Below, one piece after another: positions 41,999 to 53,102 of a DNA stretch of 64,000 bases (positions are counted from its first letter, which is position 1; each line of letters starts with the position of its first letter). The notes beneath the pieces were generated by a model. The model worked only from the letters and a program-made list of their open reading frames with translations. It was not told the origin of the DNA and ran no database searches. Both the position numbers and the translations under genes were made by a program. Source of the DNA: Escherichia virus TH15; the sequence record MT446392.1; one strand, given 5' to 3'.

Positions 41999-43522
41999 AT
42001 GCAAGAATTTTATTTAACTATCGAACAAATCGGTGACAACCTGCTCGAACGGTACATTGACAAGAATGGTCATGAACGTGTTCGTGAAATCCCTTATGCT
42101 CCATGCTTGTTTATGCATGCTCGCGAAGACCAGGCTGCAAAGTATACAGACATCTATAATAAAGGTTGTGTGAAAAAAGAATTCGATTCCATGCGTGATG
42201 CATCCCAGTGGATGAAGCGCATGAACGATATGGGCCTCGAAGCTATGGGTATGGACGATTTCAAACTCGCGTACCTGAGCGACCGTTACCCACATGAAAT
42301 CAAATACGATTCAAGTAAAATCCGTGTGGCTAACTTCGATATCGAGGTGACATCTCCTGATGGGTTCCCTGAGCCGTCTGAAGCACGTCACCCTATCGAT
42401 GCCCTGACGCACTATGATTCGGTAGACGATAAATTCTATGTCTTTGACCTTTTGAGCTCGCCATACGCCACTGTGGAGCAATGGTCTATTGATATTGCTG
42501 CTAAGCTGCAGGAAGATGGCGGTGATGAAGTCCCCGAAGAAATCCTGGAAAAAATTGTTTATATGGCTTTCGATTCAGAAGAAGAAATGCTCCAGCAGTA
42601 TTTGGTATTCTGGAACGAGAAAACTCCGGTTATGTTAACTGGTTGGAACATCGAGAAATTTGATATTCCGTATATCTACAACCGCATTAAAAATGTATTT
42701 GGTGAAGCTACGGCCAAACGTCTGAGCCCACATCGTCGTACAAAAGTTAAAGTCATTAACAACGGCTTTGGTGAAGAACAAGAAATCATTCAGATTCTGG
42801 GTATCTCTGTTCTGGATTATCTGGACCTGTACAAAAAGTTCAGCTTCACAAACCAACCGTCTTACTCGTTGGACTATGTTGCGGAATCTGAGCTGGGTGT
42901 TGGTAAACTTCCGTATGATGGCCCGATTTCTAAATTACGTGAATCCAATCACCAGCGATACATCAGCTATAACATCATTGACGTTTATCGTGTTGTGCAG
43001 ATTGACCGTAAGCGACAGTTCATTAACCTGAGCCAATCGATGGGTTATTATGCAAAGATGCAGATTCAGTCTGTATTCAGCCCAATCAAAACTTGGGATG
43101 CGATTATCTTTAACAGTCTGAAGACTCAAAACAAGGTTATCCCTGAAACCAAATCACATGTTCGTCAATCGTTCCCTGGTGCATTTGTTAAGGAACCGAT
43201 TCCGAACGCATACAAATATGTAATGAGCTGTGACTTAACATCTCTGTATCCGAGCATCATCCGACAGATTAACATCAGTCCAGAAACGATTGCCGGGTCA
43301 TTTGCACCAGCCCAGATGCACGAATACATCGCAGGAACTGCTGACCGTCCATCTGATGCATTTAGTTGTGCGCCAAATGGTATGATGTATTTTAAAGATG
43401 TTGCGGGTATTATTCCGACAGAAGTTGAGAAAGTTTTTAATCAACGAAAAACCGAAAAGAAAAAGATGTTGGCGGCACAACGTAATAGTGAATTGATTAA
43501 AGAAATTTTACATGGAAAATAA
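41999..43522 (+). CDS. 43: DNA polymerase gp43, N-terminal fragment
   Basis: 507 aa: 3'-5' exonuclease region and pol motif A (DLTSLYPSII); ends where the endonuclease gene begins. Confidence 0.9.
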   Translation: MQEFYLTIEQIGDNLLERYIDKNGHERVREIPYAPCLFMHAREDQAAKYTDIYNKGCVKKEFDSMRDASQWMKRMNDMGLEAMGMDDFKLAYLSDRYPHEIKYDSSKIRVANFDIEVTSPDGFPEPSEARHPIDALTHYDSVDDKFYVFDLLSSPYATVEQWSIDIAAKLQEDGGDEVPEEILEKIVYMAFDSEEEMLQQYLVFWNEKTPVMLTGWNIEKFDIPYIYNRIKNVFGEATAKRLSPHRRTKVKVINNGFGEEQEIIQILGISVLDYLDLYKKFSFTNQPSYSLDYVAESELGVGKLPYDGPISKLRESNHQRYISYNIIDVYRVVQIDRKRQFINLSQSMGYYAKMQIQSVFSPIKTWDAIIFNSLKTQNKVIPETKSHVRQSFPGAFVKEPIPNAYKYVMSCDLTSLYPSIIRQINISPETIAGSFAPAQMHEYIAGTADRPSDAFSCAPNGMMYFKDVAGIIPTEVEKVFNQRKTEKKKMLAAQRNSELIKEILHGK

Positions 43523-44210
43523 ATTGCATTTTGTGTATAAAATTACAAATAACATTAATGGTAAAATTTACATCGGTGTTCACAGCACCGATGATATTAA
43601 TGATGGATATTTGGGCAAAGGTACTTTAATTCAGAAAGCTATTAAAAAATATGGGAAATCTAATTTTAAAAAGGAAATTTTGGAATTTTTCGAGGACCGC
43701 ACTTCAGCCTTTGACAAAGAGCGAGAGCTTGTAACCAGAGAATTTGTCAGTTTGACAACAAACTATAATTTAAAAACTGGCGGCGAAGGTGGTGCAATGT
43801 ATGGTAAAACCAATCCGATGTATGGTCGAACATATAGGAAGTCGGAATCAGAGAAGACCCAAATTTCGTTGCGATTTAAAAATGTTCCCAAAACCAACCA
43901 GCACAAACAAAACCTATCCAATTCATTACTCGGTAAACCCAGACCGGACATCGCTGAGAGACAGCGCGGATTGTTACCCTGGAATGTTAATTCTATTCGC
44001 AATAACAAAACCAGACTAAGAAAATTCGCCGACCTGGATATTATTTTCGATTATTGGTCTAGTCATAAATGTGGTGTTAAAGCATTAGCGAATTGGTATC
44101 AACTGGCGACGTATAATGAATTAGCATCCGTTATGCGATTCATTAAAAAGTATGGTGACCCGCGACTGAATGGTGATTGGAAAAAATTTAAGGCTGACTA
44201 TGAATATTGA
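43512..44210 (+). CDS. GIY-YIG homing endonuclease inserted in gene 43
   Basis: N-terminal HFVYKITNNINGKIYIGVHS GIY-YIG motif; overlaps both polymerase ORFs. Confidence 0.75.
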   Translation: MENKLHFVYKITNNINGKIYIGVHSTDDINDGYLGKGTLIQKAIKKYGKSNFKKEILEFFEDRTSAFDKERELVTREFVSLTTNYNLKTGGEGGAMYGKTNPMYGRTYRKSESEKTQISLRFKNVPKTNQHKQNLSNSLLGKPRPDIAERQRGLLPWNVNSIRNNKTRLRKFADLDIIFDYWSSHKCGVKALANWYQLATYNELASVMRFIKKYGDPRLNGDWKKFKADYEY

Positions 44211-45375
44211 TTATAATGCTGATTTTACAGAAGAACAAATCGAATACTTAAAAACTTTGTCTAAAGATGAATTGGAACACCATTTATACAATTCTCAAAT
44301 GGCTGAAGTAGCTGCAAACACCGCGCAGATTAACCGTAAACTGCTTATCAATAGCTGTTATGGTGCTCTGGGCAATATCTGGTTCCGTTACTTTGACCTG
44401 CGAAATGCAACTGCGATTACATCTTTCGGGCAACTTGCATTGCAGTGGATTGAGCGTAAAGTTAACGAATACTTCGATAGTGTTTGTGGTACAAGTGGTG
44501 AGACTTACGTATTCTATGGCGATACTGACTCCATTTATATCCAGTGCGATAACCTGATTAAAAAGGTTGGTGGTGAATCTAAATTCCGCGATACAAACCA
44601 CCTGGTTGACTTCATGGACAAGTTTGCAAAAGACCGTCTGGAACCGGCAATTGATAAAGCTTTCCGTGAACTGGCCGAATACATGAACAATAAACAGCAC
44701 CTTATGTTTATGGACCGTGAAGCGATTGCATGTCCTCCGCTGGGTTCTAAAGGCGTGGGTGGATTCTGGACGGCGAAGAAGCGTTATGCGTTGAACGTGT
44801 ATGATATGGAAGGCACACGATATGCTGTTCCGAAACTGAAAATTATGGGTCTGGAAACTCAAAAGTCGAGCACTCCAAAAGCATGTCAGAAAGCTCTGAA
44901 AGAATGTATCCGTCGCATGCTGCAAGAAGGTGAAGAATCTCTGCAGACATACTTCAAGGAATTCAATAAGGAATTTAATGAGCTTAACTACATGACCATC
45001 GCAGGTGTATCATCGGTTAACAACATCCAGAAATATAATGAGGGCGGTTTCCCTGGATTTAAGTGCCCGGCTCATATCAAAGGTGTGCTTGCATATATGC
45101 GTGCAACTAAAGGGCTGAAGACTGTTCCGCAAATCATGGAAGGGGAAAAGGTGTATGTGCTTCCTCTTAAAGTTGGTAATCCGTTTGGCGAAACCGTGAT
45201 TGCGTGGCCATCAGGGATTGAACTCCCGATTGAAATTCGTGACCAAGTCTTGCAGTGGATGGACTACAACACACTGTTCCAGAAGACTTTTGTTAAGCCA
45301 TTGACAGGGTTCTCTGAAGCAGCTAAGGTTGATTACGAGAAAAAAGCATCTCTTTTTGATATGTTTGATTTTTAA
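44200..45375 (+). CDS. 43: DNA polymerase gp43, C-terminal fragment
   Basis: 391 aa: pol motif B KLLINSCYGALG and motif C YGDTDS; 507+391=898 aa, the length I recall for T4 gp43. Confidence 0.9.
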   Translation: MNIDYNADFTEEQIEYLKTLSKDELEHHLYNSQMAEVAANTAQINRKLLINSCYGALGNIWFRYFDLRNATAITSFGQLALQWIERKVNEYFDSVCGTSGETYVFYGDTDSIYIQCDNLIKKVGGESKFRDTNHLVDFMDKFAKDRLEPAIDKAFRELAEYMNNKQHLMFMDREAIACPPLGSKGVGGFWTAKKRYALNVYDMEGTRYAVPKLKIMGLETQKSSTPKACQKALKECIRRMLQEGEESLQTYFKEFNKEFNELNYMTIAGVSSVNNIQKYNEGGFPGFKCPAHIKGVLAYMRATKGLKTVPQIMEGEKVYVLPLKVGNPFGETVIAWPSGIELPIEIRDQVLQWMDYNTLFQKTFVKPLTGFSEAAKVDYEKKASLFDMFDF

Positions 45376-47608: not shown

Positions 47609-47942
47609 TATCGATTTATCTGATTTAGATAATTTCGAGAAAGATGCGGAGGGAGCTAAGGCTCCTTCTGTGCCTTACTACGAAAAAAGTTTGGAGATTA
47701 TCCGGCAATCCATGGGAACTGTACGACAGGAAATTCTGTTATCACTTCCCGATGGGTCCAGTCACATCGTGTACGTAACCGGAATTAAAATTGAACCATC
47801 TGGAAAAGTTTCAGTTGATTTCGGCACCCCTTCTGAAGACCGCAAAGCGGAGCTTGCAGTGCATGTAGAAAAGTGTGTTACAATGCAAATACAAGATGAA
47901 ATTGATAAGATTAAAATGAAAAAGAGGTGGTGGAAGTGGTAG
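47601..47942 (+). CDS. 40: gp40-like protein
   Basis: Size and position between uvsX and 41 as T4 gene 40; ATG 47601. Confidence 0.5.
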   Translation: MSDIDLSDLDNFEKDAEGAKAPSVPYYEKSLEIIRQSMGTVRQEILLSLPDGSSHIVYVTGIKIEPSGKVSVDFGTPSEDRKAELAVHVEKCVTMQIQDEIDKIKMKKRWWKW

Positions 47943-49366
47943 AAACTATTTTATCCCAGCTACTCTTTAACAAGGAATATTTTGTTAAAGTCTGGCCATA
48001 TCTGAATAATACATATTTTGAAAAGGGTCCTGCGAAGACCCTTTTTAATACGATTAACGAACATGTAAAAGAATATCAAGCAGTGCCAACTAAGACTGCA
48101 CTTGATATCGCGCTCGACGGTTCTGACCTTTCTGAAGTTGAATATGAAGGCACAAAGAAACTCTTAGGAGTCCTGGCCGATACTCCAGAAGACCAGGAAT
48201 GGTTGGTCAGAGAAACCGAGAAGTATGTACAGAAGTCTGCGATGTTCAATGCCACATCCAGGATTATCGAAATCCAGAGTAATGCCGAACTTCCGAAAGA
48301 TAAGCGTGATAAACGAATCCCGGATATCGGGGCTATCCCTGACATTATGCGCGATGCATTGTCTATTTGTTTTGACTCTGCTCTGGGCCATGACTGGTTA
48401 AACGATTACGAAGCTCGATTCCAGACTTATCTGAACAAATCGAAGAAAGTTCCGTTCCGTATTAACATCCTGAATAAAATTACGAAGGGTGGAGTTGAGT
48501 ACGGTACAGAGAACGTTTTACTAGCCGGGACAAACGTCGGGAAATCCCTTGGACTCTGTTCATTAGCCGCTGACTATCTTCAGACTGGTCATAACGTTCT
48601 TTATATAAGCATGGAAATGGCTGAAGAAGTATGTGCCAAACGTATTGATGCCAACTTGCTGGATGTGTCTCTGGATGATATTGATGAAGGTCATATATCA
48701 TGGGCGGAATATAAAGCTAAGATGGAAAAATGGCGTGCTTCCGGGACTCTCGGGACTCTGAAGATAAAACAATATCCAACTGGGGGCGCGCATGCGGATA
48801 CCTTCCGTGCATTACTGAACGAGTACAAACTGAAGCAAGGATTTGTACCAGATGTGATTATTGTTGACTACCTGGCAATCTGCGCAAGCTCAAGACTGAA
48901 AACGTTTACCGAAAACAGTTACGGCCTGATTAAGATGGTTGCAGAAGAACTTCGTGGTCTGGCGGTCGAGAAAAATGTGGTCCTATGGACCGCGGCGCAG
49001 ACAACCAGGGGCGCGAACGTTGCAGCTGAGATTGATATGGCTGACATCGCAGAATCCTTTGGTATTGCTCACACGGCTGACTTTATGTTGGGTGTTGTTG
49101 AGACCGAAGAATTCGCTCAAATGGGACTGCAGTTAATCAAACAGCTTAAGTCTCGTTATGGCGATAAGAACTACTATAATAAATTCAAGATGGGTGTTAA
49201 GAAAGGTAATCAACGCTGGTATGAGGTTGATGATGATTCAGCTCCTAAACAAGGCCCTACGGTGAAAGAAGCCACTGGTGAGATGAATCGTCAGGCTGAA
49301 ATGAATAGACAAACCAGGGTCAACAGGAGCGACCTGGATGACCTTGCCGCTCAAATGAAATTTTAA
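47936..49366 (+). CDS. 41: replicative DNA helicase gp41
   Basis: DnaB-like; Walker A AGTNVGKS; GTG at 47936 gives MVETILSQL matching T4 MVEIILSHL. Confidence 0.9.
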   Translation: MVETILSQLLFNKEYFVKVWPYLNNTYFEKGPAKTLFNTINEHVKEYQAVPTKTALDIALDGSDLSEVEYEGTKKLLGVLADTPEDQEWLVRETEKYVQKSAMFNATSRIIEIQSNAELPKDKRDKRIPDIGAIPDIMRDALSICFDSALGHDWLNDYEARFQTYLNKSKKVPFRINILNKITKGGVEYGTENVLLAGTNVGKSLGLCSLAADYLQTGHNVLYISMEMAEEVCAKRIDANLLDVSLDDIDEGHISWAEYKAKMEKWRASGTLGTLKIKQYPTGGAHADTFRALLNEYKLKQGFVPDVIIVDYLAICASSRLKTFTENSYGLIKMVAEELRGLAVEKNVVLWTAAQTTRGANVAAEIDMADIAESFGIAHTADFMLGVVETEEFAQMGLQLIKQLKSRYGDKNYYNKFKMGVKKGNQRWYEVDDDSAPKQGPTVKEATGEMNRQAEMNRQTRVNRSDLDDLAAQMKF

Positions 49367-49374
49367 AATATTTT

Positions 49375-49397
49375 AAAAGGGGCTTACAGCCCCTTTT
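49375..49397 (+). terminator. terminator hairpin containing a promoter -35
   Basis: Stem AAAAGGGG/CCCCTTTT, loop CTTACAG. Confidence 0.6.
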
Positions 49398-49411
49398 TCT
49401 TATGTTATAAT
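49383..49411 (+). promoter_or_regulatory. T4-type early promoter embedded in terminator hairpin
   Basis: -35 CTTACA in loop, 17-nt spacer, -10 TATAAT. Confidence 0.5.
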
Positions 49412-49437
49412 GACCCTATCAACTACTGGAGAATAAA

Positions 49438-49755
49438 ATGAAAACTATTGATTGCAAAGCGGAATACAAAGTTTATTATCATGGCTCAAGCTCTAATGCT
49501 GGAATCCAAAATATGCTTTGCCCTCCTGATGCAACTGGTGTTCTGTCAGAAGTTGGGCGCAAGAAAAATTTAGGGCGTGTGTTTTTTACTGAAGATATTG
49601 GTTTGGCACGTATCTATGCAGGAAGAGCAGCTCGTTCAGTGGGAGGAGAACCCCGTCTTTATCGTGTGATTGCACCTGTTGATGTGGTTTGTTTAAATGA
49701 TACTAAAGGCGCAACAGTTTATCACGCAGACTGGGCGTTTTGTGAGGAAATCTAA
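49438..49755 (+). CDS. hypothetical protein
   Basis: 105 aa; ends EEI with GAGGAAATCTAA forming SD of next gene. Confidence 0.55.
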   Translation: MKTIDCKAEYKVYYHGSSSNAGIQNMLCPPDATGVLSEVGRKKNLGRVFFTEDIGLARIYAGRAARSVGGEPRLYRVIAPVDVVCLNDTKGATVYHADWAFCEEI

Positions 49756-49968
49756 ATGTATAAATTAGAGAACGTAGTGTTTATTGGTTGGTTTGAAAAT
49801 GGTAATATGTTTACCAAAGAAACCGCGCTGGATGTTAGTGACCAAAAAATGATTGAATGGGTTACGGTGCAGTATGCAGAGGTGAATAATGCGCTGGTGA
49901 AAGCCTTTGTTAATGACAATAAAGTTTTTGAATGTGATTATCGTATCCACTTATCTGAGGAAATCTAA
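49756..49968 (+). CDS. hypothetical protein
   Basis: 70 aa; NALVKAFVNDNKVF shared with next gene; ends EEI. Confidence 0.5.
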   Translation: MYKLENVVFIGWFENGNMFTKETALDVSDQKMIEWVTVQYAEVNNALVKAFVNDNKVFECDYRIHLSEEI

Positions 49969-50310
49969 ATGGCTTTTAATCCAGAAGACCGCGTAAAAGT
50001 AACAATCAAAGTGAGTGCTGTTGGCGTTCCATCTTTTGAGCGCTCAAGTATGTTCCATCCCGCAGGTATTCACTGGTATGTTCAGAAGACTGCTGATAAC
50101 TATAATGCGCTTGTTGAAGCTTTTGTTGATGACAAGCTAATTCATAAAGTAGACATGCGTAAGGGTACCGCATTGCGTAATCTGATTTTGACCGTTGAAG
50201 CGCAACTGTTAAATGAAGAAATCTGCCTTACTGATATTGAAGCAGCTCTTCATATTGCACGTGCTGAATATTACAACTTGACCGGTTTTTCAGTTGAAGG
50301 CGAAAAATAA
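49969..50310 (+). CDS. hypothetical protein
   Basis: 113 aa; paralogous core NALVEAFVDDKLIH. Confidence 0.5.
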   Translation: MAFNPEDRVKVTIKVSAVGVPSFERSSMFHPAGIHWYVQKTADNYNALVEAFVDDKLIHKVDMRKGTALRNLILTVEAQLLNEEICLTDIEAALHIARAEYYNLTGFSVEGEK

Positions 50311-50340
50311 GTGTACAACAAAGGGATAATGCAGTATATT
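50311..50340 (+). promoter_or_regulatory. T4-type early promoter
   Basis: -35 GTGTACA, 17-nt spacer, -10 TATATT; flanked by 9-bp inverted repeat AGGGATAAT/ATTATCCCT. Confidence 0.5.
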
Positions 50341-50368
50341 ATCCCTATCAACTACTGAGGAGATTGAA

Positions 50369-50662
50369 ATGAAAAAGTTATTAATCGCGGCAATTCTTAC
50401 CGTAGCATCATGTGGTACAGCTCCTGTAACCGCTGGACTTGATAAAGACCTTTGTGAGTGGTCTATGACTGCTGACCAGACTGATGTTGAACATCAGATT
50501 TATGCTGATATCATGAATATTACTAAACGTGACCGCCCAGATATGGTTAAAGAAGTATCTGACCAACTGGCTTCTGGCGACGTTATGCAGTATAACTATG
50601 TTCTGTATTGCGATGCTTCATTTGACAACAGCAAGATTGTTCAATGGGTTACAGGTGAATAA
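50369..50662 (+). CDS. putative lipoprotein
   Basis: Signal peptide with lipobox TVASC. Confidence 0.55.
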   Translation: MKKLLIAAILTVASCGTAPVTAGLDKDLCEWSMTADQTDVEHQIYADIMNITKRDRPDMVKEVSDQLASGDVMQYNYVLYCDASFDNSKIVQWVTGE

Positions 50663-50663
50663 A

Positions 50664-51104
50664 ATGATTAACAGAAATTTAGTTATCAAAAAACTTCGTT
50701 GTAAAAATCAAAATGCACAGGCATACAGGATGTTTTGGAGCGACGACCCCATCCAATACCTGGGTTATTTTCTTGTTGATAGTGATAATAGAATTACGTT
50801 TGCTCATAAACTTCTTAACAAAGAATTAAACCATTGGCAAGAACTTATTGCGGTCAAGTCTAAATTATTTTCGCGCAATACAATGCACCAATTGGTTTAT
50901 TTTTTCGCTGATGGTATTCCTGACAAGGTTGAATTTGATGGGTTTGAATTTAAAGACATCAACCCTGATAATGAATTGAATGACAGTATTGTTAATATGG
51001 GTATCCCGGGTAAGTACATCAAAAACAGTCTTTTGAAACTTCTGGAAACTCCTGTATATTCAGTTGACGACCAAATTTTTAATGCCTTCATGAAGCGAGA
51101 TTAA
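50664..51104 (+). CDS. hypothetical protein, C-terminal DDQIFNAFMKRD tail
   Basis: ATG 50664 after GGTGAATAAA; track ATG 50529 overlaps upstream gene. Confidence 0.55.
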   Translation: MINRNLVIKKLRCKNQNAQAYRMFWSDDPIQYLGYFLVDSDNRITFAHKLLNKELNHWQELIAVKSKLFSRNTMHQLVYFFADGIPDKVEFDGFEFKDINPDNELNDSIVNMGIPGKYIKNSLLKLLETPVYSVDDQIFNAFMKRD

Positions 51105-51105
51105 T

Positions 51106-51465
51106 ATGAGTTATTATAATTTTCTGAATTTTGAACTGGTGAGCAATAATGATGGTAATGCCCGTTATGAATTTCGTGAGCCTCGGTTTAATCAGGCGAT
51201 TGGTTATATTATCGTTAAAGATGATGTTATCATAAAGGCTCGCTCATTTATGGTAATGAGTGGACCTTATGAAGATACTCGTGGCTATCCATTTGATAAA
51301 AAGAATGTACGCGATTGTGCAGCATGGATAACCGGAAACCCTGAAATTGGGGTCATGATATCTACTGAAGCAAATGACATTCTGGAAGGGGCTTGGGTTA
51401 AAGCTCAAGAACTGCCTACTGATATTGATGACCAGATTTTTAATGCCTTCATGAAGCGAGGTTAA
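51106..51465 (+). CDS. hypothetical protein, C-terminal DDQIFNAFMKRG tail
   Basis: 119 aa; last 12 codons repeat those of previous gene. Confidence 0.55.
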   Translation: MSYYNFLNFELVSNNDGNARYEFREPRFNQAIGYIIVKDDVIIKARSFMVMSGPYEDTRGYPFDKKNVRDCAAWITGNPEIGVMISTEANDILEGAWVKAQELPTDIDDQIFNAFMKRG

Positions 51466-51466
51466 T

Positions 51467-51688
51467 ATGTTTGTTTTGACCCAATTCTCTAAAGCAATAT
51501 ATAGTTACTCTTGTCAGTGGGAAGTCTTTATTGATACTCCTTCGCCTAAGTATGGTGTTTTTGGACGAGTAACTACACAAGCTTACGTTGCGCGACCGAC
51601 TAAACGTCAGATTCGTAAGCTTAAAAAGGCACATCGTCAATTGATTAAAAGAAGGGAACAATATGAGTGCAATGTGTACGGGCTCTAA
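51467..51688 (+). CDS. hypothetical basic protein
   Basis: 73-aa ORF. Confidence 0.45.
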   Translation: MFVLTQFSKAIYSYSCQWEVFIDTPSPKYGVFGRVTTQAYVARPTKRQIRKLKKAHRQLIKRREQYECNVYGL

Positions 51689-51854
51689 GATTTCGGTCTT
51701 CCAGATTTTTGAAGAATATGAAATCGTGTCGCAAGACCAAGAAGCAATCCATGTTATCGCTGATGATGGTGTTACCTGGATTATTCCATTGTATCATGAA
51801 GACACTTATGAAGTGACTGATGCAAATGGTGATAAAGCTATCTTCGTTGTATAA
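51663..51854 (+). CDS. hypothetical protein
   Basis: 63-aa ORF. Confidence 0.4.
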   Translation: MSAMCTGSKISVFQIFEEYEIVSQDQEAIHVIADDGVTWIIPLYHEDTYEVTDANGDKAIFVV

Positions 51855-51857
51855 ATA
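51850..51857 (+). promoter_or_regulatory. T4-type late promoter TATAAATA
   Basis: Exact TATAAATA 17 nt upstream of ATG 51874. Confidence 0.45.
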
Positions 51858-51873
51858 GCGGAAAGGGGGTGTT

Positions 51874-52041
51874 ATGAAAACATTCAAAGATTTTATAAAC
51901 GAAGATATGGTTGCAGGTGATGCAGGTGGAAACCCAACTAATATCGCAACAGGTACCACTTCCGGGGCAGTTGTCAATAAAGGCCCTGAACAAATCCCAT
52001 CAAAAAAGCGTAAGAATAAAGACGATAAACCTACAGTATAA
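51874..52041 (+). CDS. small protein with capsid-targeting-like N-terminus
   Basis: 55 aa starting MKTFKDFINED after GGAAAGGGGG SD; below track cutoff. Confidence 0.4.
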   Translation: MKTFKDFINEDMVAGDAGGNPTNIATGTTSGAVVNKGPEQIPSKKRKNKDDKPTV

Positions 52042-52058
52042 TGGTCCTTCGGGGCCAT
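52041..52058 (+). terminator. GC hairpin with UUCG loop
   Basis: Stem ATGGTCC/GGGCCAT. Confidence 0.4.
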
Positions 52059-52073
52059 TGAAATGAGGAAACT

Positions 52074-53102
52074 ATGTCATATATTGATAGAGAATTTGCA
52101 ATCAGAGCTTTATCGTATCAACCACGTTATAGAGAAGTCACCGGGAGCACATTTAAGGCAAACTGTCGTTGTAAGGTTTGCGGTGACTCCCAGAAAGATT
52201 CACACAAGGCCCGATTCTGGGCGTATACCAATCCGTCTGATGGTGCGGTTTACGTGAAATGTTTTAACTGTGACTACTCCACGCATATAAGCAAATACAT
52301 AAAAGAGTTTGAGCCGGATTTGCACCGGGAATATATGGTTGAGAAGTACAAGGAAAACGCCTTCGGTCGACAACGTAATGAAGTTGCAGAAGCTCCGAAA
52401 GAACAAGAAAAAACTCCGGTTATTGAAGAGCTTGCTTTTTGCGAAAGAATCGATACTTTACCAGAAGAGCATCCGATAGTTAAGTATGTAAAAAGTCGGT
52501 GTATTCCGAGCAATGTTTGGAACCGGTTATGGTTTACAAACAAATGGCCTGCATTAGTTAACTCCGTTAATCCTGGGACGTATAAGAATGAAACGAATGA
52601 ACCACGCTTGGTTATTCCTATCTTCAACGGCAAAAAAGAAATCGAATCTTTCCAAGGACGAGCTCTTCGCAAAGATGCACCACAAAAATATATCACAATC
52701 AAAGCTCACCCAGAAGCTTCCAAAGTCTACGGAGTAGACAAGATTGATGAGCGCAAACGTGTGTGGGTAATGGAAGGTCCGATTGATAGTTTGTTTATCC
52801 CTAACAGCATTGCGATAACTGGCGGCACATTGTCATTGGAAGCGGTTCCTTATCCAGAAACCAGAGTATGGGTAATGGACAACGAGCCAAGACATCCTGA
52901 TACGATTAAACGTATGAAGAAGCTCGTTGAGGCTGGTGAAGCCGTTATGTTCTGGGATAATGCGCCATGGCATACAAAAGACATAAATGAGATGGTTAAA
53001 TCAGAAGGGGCAACCCCTGAACAAATCGAATCATATATGGCTGATAACGTTGCCCAAGGGTTGATGGCAAGAATGCGACTTTCGAAGTACGCAAAAGTTT
53101 AG
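52074..53102 (+). CDS. 61: DNA primase gp61
   Basis: 342 aa; zinc-binding CRCKVCGD...CFNCDY, C-terminal TOPRIM; matches T4 gp61. Confidence 0.9.
   Translation: MSYIDREFAIRALSYQPRYREVTGSTFKANCRCKVCGDSQKDSHKARFWAYTNPSDGAVYVKCFNCDYSTHISKYIKEFEPDLHREYMVEKYKENAFGRQRNEVAEAPKEQEKTPVIEELAFCERIDTLPEEHPIVKYVKSRCIPSNVWNRLWFTNKWPALVNSVNPGTYKNETNEPRLVIPIFNGKKEIESFQGRALRKDAPQKYITIKAHPEASKVYGVDKIDERKRVWVMEGPIDSLFIPNSIAITGGTLSLEAVPYPETRVWVMDNEPRHPDTIKRMKKLVEAGEAVMFWDNAPWHTKDINEMVKSEGATPEQIESYMADNVAQGLMARMRLSKYAKV

Follow-up and report, generated by a model that had tools for sequence, protein, structure and literature searches.

Why should two neighbouring genes that differ over most of their length end in one and the same stretch of DNA? 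The question is raised by 64,000 nucleotides (nt) of the genome of Escherichia virus TH15 (MT446392.1; this whole stretch is called the window below), in which gene A (146 amino acids (aa), JS98 gp030 type, 50664..51104, plus strand) is followed directly by gene B (119 aa, T2 "gp61.2" type, 51106..51465, plus strand). The window belongs to a Gaprivervirus, an SP18/JS98-like T-even phage, with 95-99% megablast identity to TH54, PSD2001, VR20 and SP18. The reading that we prefer, and to which we give a probability of about 0.75, is that the repeated ends represent the tail of the gp61.2/AdfA protein group, carried here on two tandem, strongly diverged modular cassettes, that this tail is selected as a peptide, and that its DNA is at the same time a recombination joint. 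Few phage inhibitors of toxin-antitoxin (TA) defence have been characterised; AdfA (anti-DarT factor A), which binds and neutralises the toxin DarT1 (PMC11257639), is among them. Its mechanism is only partly understood, and the literature searched describes its relatives as absent from phages such as T2.

The repeated gene end

A repeat search of the window finds a direct repeat of 45 nt at 51064-51108 and 51425-51469, with 42 of the 45 positions identical and 361 nt from start to start. Its 26-nt core, with up to three mismatches allowed, occurs exactly twice in the 64-kb window and in none of 100 shuffled versions. The preliminary description, made from the sequence alone, had placed an almost exact repeat of about 36 nt at 51069..51104 and 51430..51465; the repeat is there, and it is longer than supposed, starting 5 nt before 51069 and reaching the ATG of the next gene. 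The identical 12-codon tail that was claimed on the same occasion comes down to 11 residues, both open reading frames (ORFs) ending in DDQIFNAFMKR, then D in gene A or G in gene B, TAA, a single T and the ATG of the next gene. Two of the three mismatches between the copies are synonymous (GAC/GAT and CAA/CAG) and the third is responsible for the change of D to G.

Copy 1 (51064..51108, plus strand) consists of the end of gene A (codons V-DDQIFNAFM-KRD and TAA), T and the ATG of gene B, and copy 2 (51425..51469, plus strand) of the end of gene B (codons I-DDQIFNAFM-KRG and TAA), T and the ATG of a gene encoding a DUF7279 protein. The nine codons of the invariant core DDQIFNAFM occupy 51066..51092 in gene A and 51427..51453 in gene B (both plus strand), those of gene B corresponding to the invariant columns D108-M116 of the B-family alignment. 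At both junctions a single nucleotide separates the stop from the next start. In the internal-type junction CGA GAT TAA T ATG (51096..51108, plus strand) gene B is preceded by a weak Shine-Dalgarno-like GAGA that overlaps the last two codons, and in the terminal-type junction CGA GGT TAA T ATG (51457..51469, plus strand) these two codons contain a Shine-Dalgarno-like GAGG for the downstream gene.

The tail in the gp61.2/AdfA group

As judged from sequence comparison, what the repeat encodes is the C-terminal tail that is conserved in the gp61.2/AdfA group of T-even phage proteins. The tail was looked for on other genes of related phages, as the preliminary description had proposed, and it is present on AdfA and on the gp61.2 of T2. 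By direct translation T4 gp61.2 (AdfA, 208 aa) and T2 gp61.2 (108/118 aa, B type) both end in SIDDQIFNAFMNRG and a stop codon, followed by TTAATATG and by gp61.1, the next gene downstream of the tail in these two phages, and a published primer sequence puts the end of RB69 AdfA at ...IFNAFMNRG (PMC11257639). The consensus is (S/x)(I/V)DDQIFNAFM(N/K)(R/K)(G/D), stop and then TTAATATG, with the TAATATG junction found in AdfA too.

The profile searches see the relationship at the C-terminus. The Pfam AdfA profile PF23813 matches gene B with 21.4 bits (E=1.8e-4) at profile positions 195-211 of 211, that is, over the tail only and below the gathering cut-off of 27 bits, so that gene B as a whole protein is not placed in the family, and gene A gives no match to this profile at E<=0.1. 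Over their full lengths the two proteins fall into separate PHROG families: gene A matches phrog_8539 (residues 1-146 to 1-145/145, E=1.6e-91) and gene B matches phrog_4122 (residues 1-119 to 3-118/118, E=2.3e-52), and the families 8539, 4122 and 3781 cross-match solely at their C-terminal ends. In gene A, whose start the mechanical ORF list places further upstream than 50664, the body is followed by an extended conserved C-terminus, KYIKNSLLKLLETPVYSVDDQIFNAFMKRD.

Besides the tail SIDDQIFNAFMNRG and the stop/start junction, A and B share with AdfA the locus directly after spackle and a similar N-terminal hairpin motif. They differ from it in their bodies, which show weak profile and fold similarity, and in size (208-216 aa for AdfA against 146 and 119 aa); the hairpin motif is seemingly present twice in AdfA, and its specificity residue His164 has no alignable equivalent in A or B. 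The R164H variant of AdfA binds DarT1, one residue being enough to switch specificity, and the same study treats T2, which carries only the B type, as devoid of an adfA homolog (PMC11257639). Our literature search, which covered part of the journals, found no paper on the shared tail or on a relation of the T2-type or JS98-type genes to AdfA.

Selection on the peptide

The nature of the selection was judged on 44 tails from 28 loci. All 44 encode DDQIFNAFM, and within this core six of the eight degenerate third positions vary, as against none of the 19 other positions (Fisher P=9.5e-5). The varying codons are GAT/GAC at two sites, CAA/CAG, ATT/ATA, GCT/GCC/GCA and TTT/TTC. Since only synonymous sites of the core vary, selection acts on the peptide and not on the DNA, and the peptide is under purifying selection at the amino-acid level in no fewer than four genera of T-even phages and three types of gene. 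The tail is also the longest stretch without variation in the B family, where the bodies have just 46% identity. The three residues behind the core vary as [NK][RK][GD]; we infer from the sequence that their codons double as the ribosome-binding site and the stop/start junction for the next gene. A MotA-box-like reading of TGCCTTCA, 11 nt and TAATAT was considered and dropped, as the box is imperfect and the sequence varies synonymously between lineages; this was judged by eye, with no MotA scan.

The tail as a recombination joint

The arrays between spackle (sp) and the genes downstream of the tail differ among the T-even phages. T4, G8 and fPS-65 have the order sp-AdfA-61.1, T2 has sp-B-61.1, and RB68, KIT03, QOTSP, L020 and phiD1 have sp-AdfA-B-61.1, as does Elenatom, with AdfA frameshifted. 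JS98 and other Dhakaviruses have sp-A-DUF7279, VR26 has the same order, and the Dhakavirus UGJNEcP4 has sp-A-B-DUF7279 together with the Gapriverviruses, including that of the window.

In these arrays the tail DNA follows the lineage and the array position, not the gene body. The terminal tail of Tequatroviruses reads GAT GAC CAA ... AAT AGA GGT TAA TATGAAAAC, on AdfA (T4) or on B (T2, RB68, KIT03) alike, and their internal AdfA tails read GAC GAT CAA ... AAT AAA GGT TAA TATGTATAG. In the Dhaka/Gapriver group the internal tails always have AAG CGA GAT and the terminal ones AA(T/C/G/A) CGA GGT. The form KRD + TAATATGAGT is found on every upstream member of an A-B pair, and the form RG + TAATATG on the last member of every array, whatever its body; the terminal B tail of UGJNEcP4 is identical to the A tail of the A-only phage IME281. 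Expressed as differences per 36 nt, in figures that are descriptive only, tails on different bodies at the same position differ by 1.24 and those on the same body at the same position by 1.25, with 2.14 for the same body at different positions and 4.74 for the same body in different genera. The A and B tails of the window have the rare codons GCC and CGA in common and are identical in 8 of 10 degenerate codons, where 4.7 would be expected (P=0.035).

In pairwise alignments, relatives with two cassettes and relatives with one are separated by single clean indels of one period, the ends of which lie inside the tails: 352 nt between UGJNEcP4 and IME281, 361 nt between the window and VR26, and 358 nt each between KIT03 and T4 and between RB68 and G8. 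In three of these pairs the indel ends at the 5' edge of the tail, and in VR26 it ends at TTAATATG. T2 differs from KIT03 by a 615-nt deletion of AdfA that runs from the end of sp (GGTGAATAAT) to the end of the tail (ATGAATAGAGG) at a TGAATA microhomology of 6-7 nt, and it keeps a 14-nt relic of the tail, TAGAGGTTAGTATG, upstream of B. The repeat is a demonstrable recombination site, gene conversion included. The simplest history suggested by these sequences would start in the Tequatroviruses from an AdfA-B ancestor, with loss of B leading to T4 and loss of AdfA to T2; the polarity is inferred, the tails being the joints whether deletion or insertion took place. With the tail as the joint, the different 61.2 configurations of T4, T2 and their relatives would be explained as deletion derivatives of the AdfA-B arrangement.

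Some single records stand apart. Yersinia phage phiD1 (our locus L021, 1864-3400) has AdfA (ending in MNRD), B, a 33-aa remnant of B, a second B and 61.1 in a record with ambiguous bases; either the tails have mediated a genuine duplication here, or the population was mixed or misassembled. In Escherichia phage Elenatom (L024, 660-1282) AdfA is frameshifted into two ORFs of 98 and 64 aa upstream of an intact B, and this adfA appears to be a natural pseudogene. The g037c protein of fPS-65 (157 aa) was considered as a further body type and rejected; its sequence has the AdfA body signature, and the gene call seems to have set the start of an AdfA at an internal position.

The bodies and the predicted structure of the tail

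BLASTP aligns gene A with gene B over the last 27 residues only. The earlier remark that the two genes differ over most of their length needs to be qualified, as the two are probably diverged paralogs with a common N-terminal beta-hairpin motif and a common order of structural elements. The motif, G-h-h-h-V-x-[DN]-[DN]-x-I-h, is found in all types: GYIIVKDDVII in B, GFIVVKDNFIL in T2, GYFLVDSDNRI in A, GFIMVQNNKII in P0017 (an A-related variant), and FVFVKNNEII and GGIFVKDNRI in AdfA. With the last 16 residues removed, hhalign gives P=3e-4 for B against the N-terminal half of AdfA, P=2e-3 for B against its C-terminal half, P=5e-3 for A against the N-terminal half and P=0.046 for A against B. 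Foldseek with the model of B retrieves the gene A ortholog of VR25 (E=3e-5, template modelling (TM) score 0.58 over 140 columns) and AdfA-type proteins (E=3.4e-5 and 1.4e-4, the score including the identical tail), and the model of A retrieves an AdfA-type protein (E=1.4e-4, TM 0.40); against AdfA-type proteins the TM scores of the two models range from 0.40 to 0.54, again with the identical tail included. None of the solved structures convincingly resembles the body. Common ancestry of the A, B and AdfA bodies as diverged paralogs appears probable, at about two chances in three. The two hairpin motifs of T4 AdfA (L003 3133-3759, minus strand) lie near residue 40 (FVFVKNNEII) and about residue 130 (GGIFVKDNRI). 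Each half also aligns, weakly, with gene B, and AdfA may have arisen when two B-like units fused.

The AlphaFold2 (AF2) model of gene B, built on 10 sequences, has a mean predicted local distance difference test (pLDDT) score of 81. Residues 1-100 form a globular beta-rich body with pLDDT of about 90, the linker 101-108 is below 50 and the tail helix 107-117 is at about 50. The elements are strands (E) and helices (H) in the order E6-15, E18-25, E30-38, E41-47, H65-76, E82-85 and H87-101. Gene A (12 sequences, mean pLDDT 65.8) is predicted to have E5-11, E19-25, E31-38, E43-49, H71-82, E88-91, E94-96, H116-126 and H134-144, and both proteins would have the same order of four beta strands, alpha, beta, alpha and tail helix. 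The linkers vary freely in length and sequence between the families, from about 7 to more than 15 residues. As read from the sequence, the hydrophobic residues I, F, F and M of the tail helix at positions i, i+1, i+4 and i+5 make it amphipathic. The models fit a tail that is a tethered peptide behind a disordered linker rather than an element of the core.

Alternative explanations

The preliminary description had left a choice between a C-terminal interaction or targeting peptide and a recombination footprint. The findings support elements of each, and the two are not alternatives. The peptide half of the proposal is borne out by the purifying selection and agrees with the predicted detached helix, which would suit a docking-type peptide; the footprint half is borne out by the dependence of the tail DNA on lineage and array position and by the indels of one period that end in the tails, although not as a pure footprint. 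A footprint and nothing else, that is, DNA recently copied between genes and encoding a peptide without a function of its own, would account for the A and B tails within a genome being closer than the tails of the same gene across genera, for their common rare codons and for the indels that end in the tails. Yet the Tequatroviruses and the Mosig-like, Dhaka- and Gapriverviruses have diverged at six synonymous sites and at none of the 19 non-degenerate ones, which is the signature of long-term selection on the amino-acid sequence, and the status of the tail as the longest invariant block of the B family also speaks against this explanation, which we regard as very unlikely. No more credible is a signal at the nucleotide level, be it a regulatory element of the downstream gene (a promoter, a folded RNA or a ribosome-binding site with translational coupling) or the target of a homing endonuclease. 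GAGG or GAGA does stand in the last two codons, 5-6 nt before the next ATG, with the stop and start 1 nt apart, and the RNA near copy 1 shows less folding than shuffled controls (z=+2.2), as would be the case for an open initiation region. Such a signal, however, accounts for the last 10 nt or so only, and the third-position variation in the 27-nt core speaks against a constraint on the DNA or RNA sequence; no sigma-70-like promoter or terminator is found in both copies, and the fold z-scores of +2.19, +0.85, -0.87 and +0.24 give no conserved structure. In Rfam the region 49300-52200 has no match except two sub-threshold small RNA matches at the terminator after gene 41. That the repeat is a sequencing or assembly artefact can be set aside almost entirely. 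Two related records look disturbed, that of phiD1 by ambiguous bases and an incomplete additional copy and that of DCP80 by rearrangement, and nothing of this kind is seen in the window itself; the absence of the repeat from independently sequenced phages, which would have spoken for an artefact, is refuted by the A-B tail pair of at least seven phages besides that of the window (SP18, PSD2001, VR20, VR25, VR7, DCP80 and UGJNEcP4).

The alternative that deserves the most attention, even if we consider it rather unlikely, is that the tail is an integral structural element: packed on the N-terminal beta-sheet of the protein that carries it, it would owe its conservation to folding or stability and not to docking. 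A, B and AdfA have no conserved elements in common other than the N-terminal hairpin motif and the C-terminal helix, as would suit a contact within the molecule, and with such shallow alignments a low pLDDT is weak evidence of anything else. Against it stand the drop of the AF2 confidence from about 90 in the body to below 50 in the linker and about 50 in the helix, the free variation of the linkers, and the reported two-hybrid association with DarT1 of an AdfA-T18 fusion made in pUT18, in which the primers put T18 after the tail (PMC11257639); what this experiment shows is only that a free C-terminal end is dispensable for the DarT1 contact. Our own reading of the tail as a selected, tethered peptide and recombination joint has several points to its disadvantage. 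The low confidence of the AF2 tail could stem from the 10-12 sequences of the alignments and not from real detachment. A and B lack a Pfam match above the cut-off, the tail of B alone giving a sub-threshold one, and the PADLOC models match neither protein. The homology statistics of the bodies are weak, the Foldseek 3Di+AA score is helped by the identical tail, and Foldseek with the A model did not retrieve B reciprocally. Finally, the pairwise tail comparisons are phylogenetically non-independent.

A proposed modular scheme for the 61.2 locus

The proteins of the 61.2 locus would be built of three modules: a fast-evolving globular body that begins with the beta-hairpin motif common to the group, a linker of variable length and sequence, and the invariant amphipathic helix DDQIFNAFM, with the final two or three codons possibly serving also as the ribosome-binding site and the stop/start junction of the next gene. 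The bodies may be specificity modules for different host toxins, in analogy to AdfA and DarT1, and the constant tail may be a docking peptide for a common partner or may be needed for activity in some other way. Homologous recombination between tails, or microhomology at the tail end, has removed or added exactly one cassette in different phages, and as a by-product the tail would provide 40-45 nt of portable homology for shuffling, converting and deleting cassettes.

The locus is suggested to hold a wider modular set than AdfA, comprising besides it B (T2 type), A (JS98 type) and no fewer than two further variants, with divergent bodies and one invariant 9-residue peptide. A and B, which belong to PHROG families without an assigned function and are present in hundreds of T-even genomes, are thereby nominated, by analogy, as candidate anti-defence factors. 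A 14-residue peptide of the tail and tail-deletion alleles offer a precise and cheap handle on the common partner or requirement. The tail may also serve as a natural example of a selected coding repeat that acts as a joint for the gain, loss and conversion of cassettes.

Comparison with known systems

The feature joins known kinds, namely kinship with the AdfA family, an epitope shared at the C-terminus and the turnover of cassettes through short homologies in the anti-TA island of T4. The best-studied epitopes for such a comparison are those that bind the sliding clamp gp45: T4 gp43, gp55 and gp33, and a loop of T4 DNA ligase, dock on it by a short hydrophobic/acidic motif, which in the first three is located at or near the C-terminus and is interchangeable between them and in gp55 is joined to the body by a divergent flexible linker, a 17-residue segment (PMC2988020, PMC6212786). 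Like the 61.2 tails, the gp45 ligands carry one short motif on several different proteins of one phage, and the predicted placing of the motif, at the C-terminus behind a divergent flexible linker, is the same. The polymerase of the window ends in KKASLFDMFDF, and its gp55 likewise has a C-terminal epitope. If the tail docks on a hub of the phage replisome, gp45 is the most attractive candidate, since analogous hydrophobic/acidic C-terminal epitopes are found on the polymerase and on gp55 of the same phage; we nevertheless hold this guess, made by analogy, to be an unlikely one. The motifs LDFLF (T4) and LFDMFDF/SLFDMFDF (RB69 type) differ in sequence from DDQIFNAFM (motifs from PMC6212786). 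Between IFNAF of the 61.2 tail and LFDMF of the window polymerase only h-F-[DN]-x-F is common, a pattern drawn up post hoc for which, at a rough estimate, some 0.6 chance matches are expected. Moreover, the tail is constant between phages whose polymerase motifs differ (T4 and the window), with no co-variation. If the clamp were the partner after all, T-even phages would keep a set of interchangeable "warheads" (AdfA, A, B and the variants), each neutralising a different host toxin, one constant address tag would deliver all of them to replicating DNA, and the DNA of the tag would also be the recombination joint for swapping warheads between phages.

Phage T7 offers an analogy of principle only. 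Its unrelated proteins gp2.5 and gp4 have similar acidic C-terminal tails that dock on the T7 DNA polymerase; the phage, the sequence and the partner are all different from those of the 61.2 tail. The intergenic early promoters with stem-loops (PeSL) of the hyperplastic regions of T4-type phages, which Arbiol and colleagues reportedly proposed in 2010 to support modular gene shuffling, resemble the 61.2 repeat in being short repeats at gene boundaries. The 61.2 repeat does not belong to this class; it is coding, lacks a promoter- or terminator-like site common to both copies and has no stable stem-loop.

Turnover through short homologies takes place in the same genomic neighbourhood. In laboratory evolution the dmd-tifA region underwent amplifications and deletions bounded by short direct repeats, by which accessory anti-toxin genes were gained or lost (Srikant, Guegler and Laub 2022, eLife; bioRxiv 10.1101/2022.04.14.488369), and the T2 deletion of AdfA likewise lies at a microhomology of 6-7 nt. 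The dmd-tifA repeats are, however, fortuitous microhomologies of 6-10 bp, whereas the 61.2 locus has a selected coding repeat of 40-45 nt at every cassette end, and its events are natural polymorphisms rather than products of laboratory evolution.

Distribution of the tail

The distribution figures rest on an exhaustive search of 1.84 billion representative proteins with a hidden Markov model profile of the tail (E<=0.001) and on tblastn and blastn against phage genomes. The profile found nine proteins. Eight of the sequences were inspected, and seven of them are small T-even 61.2-locus proteins or their fragments: A type (146 aa and a 64-aa fragment), P0017 (143 aa, the A-related variant, with a different middle region), Gaprivervirus B (119 aa), Tequatrovirus B (118 aa), P0019 (125 aa, a further B-like variant) and AdfA (210 aa). 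The eighth protein is a 41-aa fragment of AdfA, and the match of the ninth (1057 aa) is restricted to the non-tail part of the profile. In a separate protein homolog search the 40-aa tail profile gave 6 and full-length B gave 8 close or fragmentary matches.

A search of the phage genome collection locates the tail DNA 753 times, in 556 records, and about one third of the T-even genomes have at least two copies. B-type tblastn matches come from 335 phage records, nearly all of them T-even, with about 45% identity in Tequatroviruses, and A-type orthologs from 85 records of Gapriver- and Dhakaviruses; a pattern scan of IMG/VR gave 16 loci. The record of DCP80 (L029, 140,978 bp) has four tail copies, with an A-B pair directly followed by clamp-loader genes on the other strand, and looks rearranged or misassembled.

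Neighbourhood of the locus

The region 47.9-54.1 kb of the window has the T4-type gene order. It begins with the helicase gene gp41 (47927-49366), which is followed by a phrog_2110 gene (49438-49755), dmd (49756-49968), a dmd-like paralog (49969-50310) and spackle (50369..50662, plus strand; Pfam T4_Spackle, E=1.4e-43), the upstream boundary of the 61.2 locus. Genes A and B, the upstream or "internal" and the downstream or "terminal" cassette, lie directly after spackle and upstream of 61.1 and the primase gene, as in T4. Directly 3' of the terminal tail is the DUF7279 gene (51467..51688, plus strand; Pfam PF23945, E=3.3e-20), and then come a phrog_3249 gene, the gp61.1 homolog (51874..52041, plus strand; its translation is close to T4/T2 gp61.1), the primase gene gp61 (52074-53102) and the dCTPase gene gp56. 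Srikant et al. called this region an anti-TA island containing dmd, tifA and adfA (bioRxiv 10.1101/2022.04.14.488369).

The island of the window has other repeats and another tandem pair of diverged anti-toxin-type genes, namely dmd (70 aa, Pfam Dmd E=4e-20) and the 113-aa paralog that directly follows it and matches Dmd weakly over residues 34-64 (E=1.7e-3). These two genes have a 34-nt repeat, 85% identical, at 49886-49919 and 50102-50135 (NALVKAFVNDNK / NALVEAFVDDK). A second repeat of gene ends, at 49738-49758 and 49951-49971, is common to the phrog_2110 gene (ending in CEEI) and dmd (ending in SEEI); it reads TGAGGAAATCTAAATG, from the last codons through the stop to the next ATG, and is a junction repeat like the 61.2 tails but shorter. 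A repeat of about 39 nt, TATA(A/T)T..CCCTATCAACTACTGGAGA.T.AAATGAAAA, lies at 49406-49444 and 50335-50375, upstream of the phrog_2110 gene and of spackle, and holds a -10-like hexamer and a ribosome-binding site. Its first copy comes after a strong terminator-like hairpin (49375-49397) downstream of gene 41, and the pair may be a PeSL-type promoter cassette. The phrog_2110 protein (105 aa) is encoded by the first island gene after gene 41 in Gapriver- and Dhakaviruses and gave no match in Pfam and PADLOC searches; the JS98 annotation calls it similar to RB69 ORF040c.

Outside the island, a homing-endonuclease ORF of 232 aa (43512-44210; phrog_314, E=1.4e-45) splits the DNA polymerase gene of the window into ORFs at 41999-43522 (507 aa) and 44170-45375 (401 aa), which match the PHROG DNA polymerase with E=1e-196 and 1e-159.

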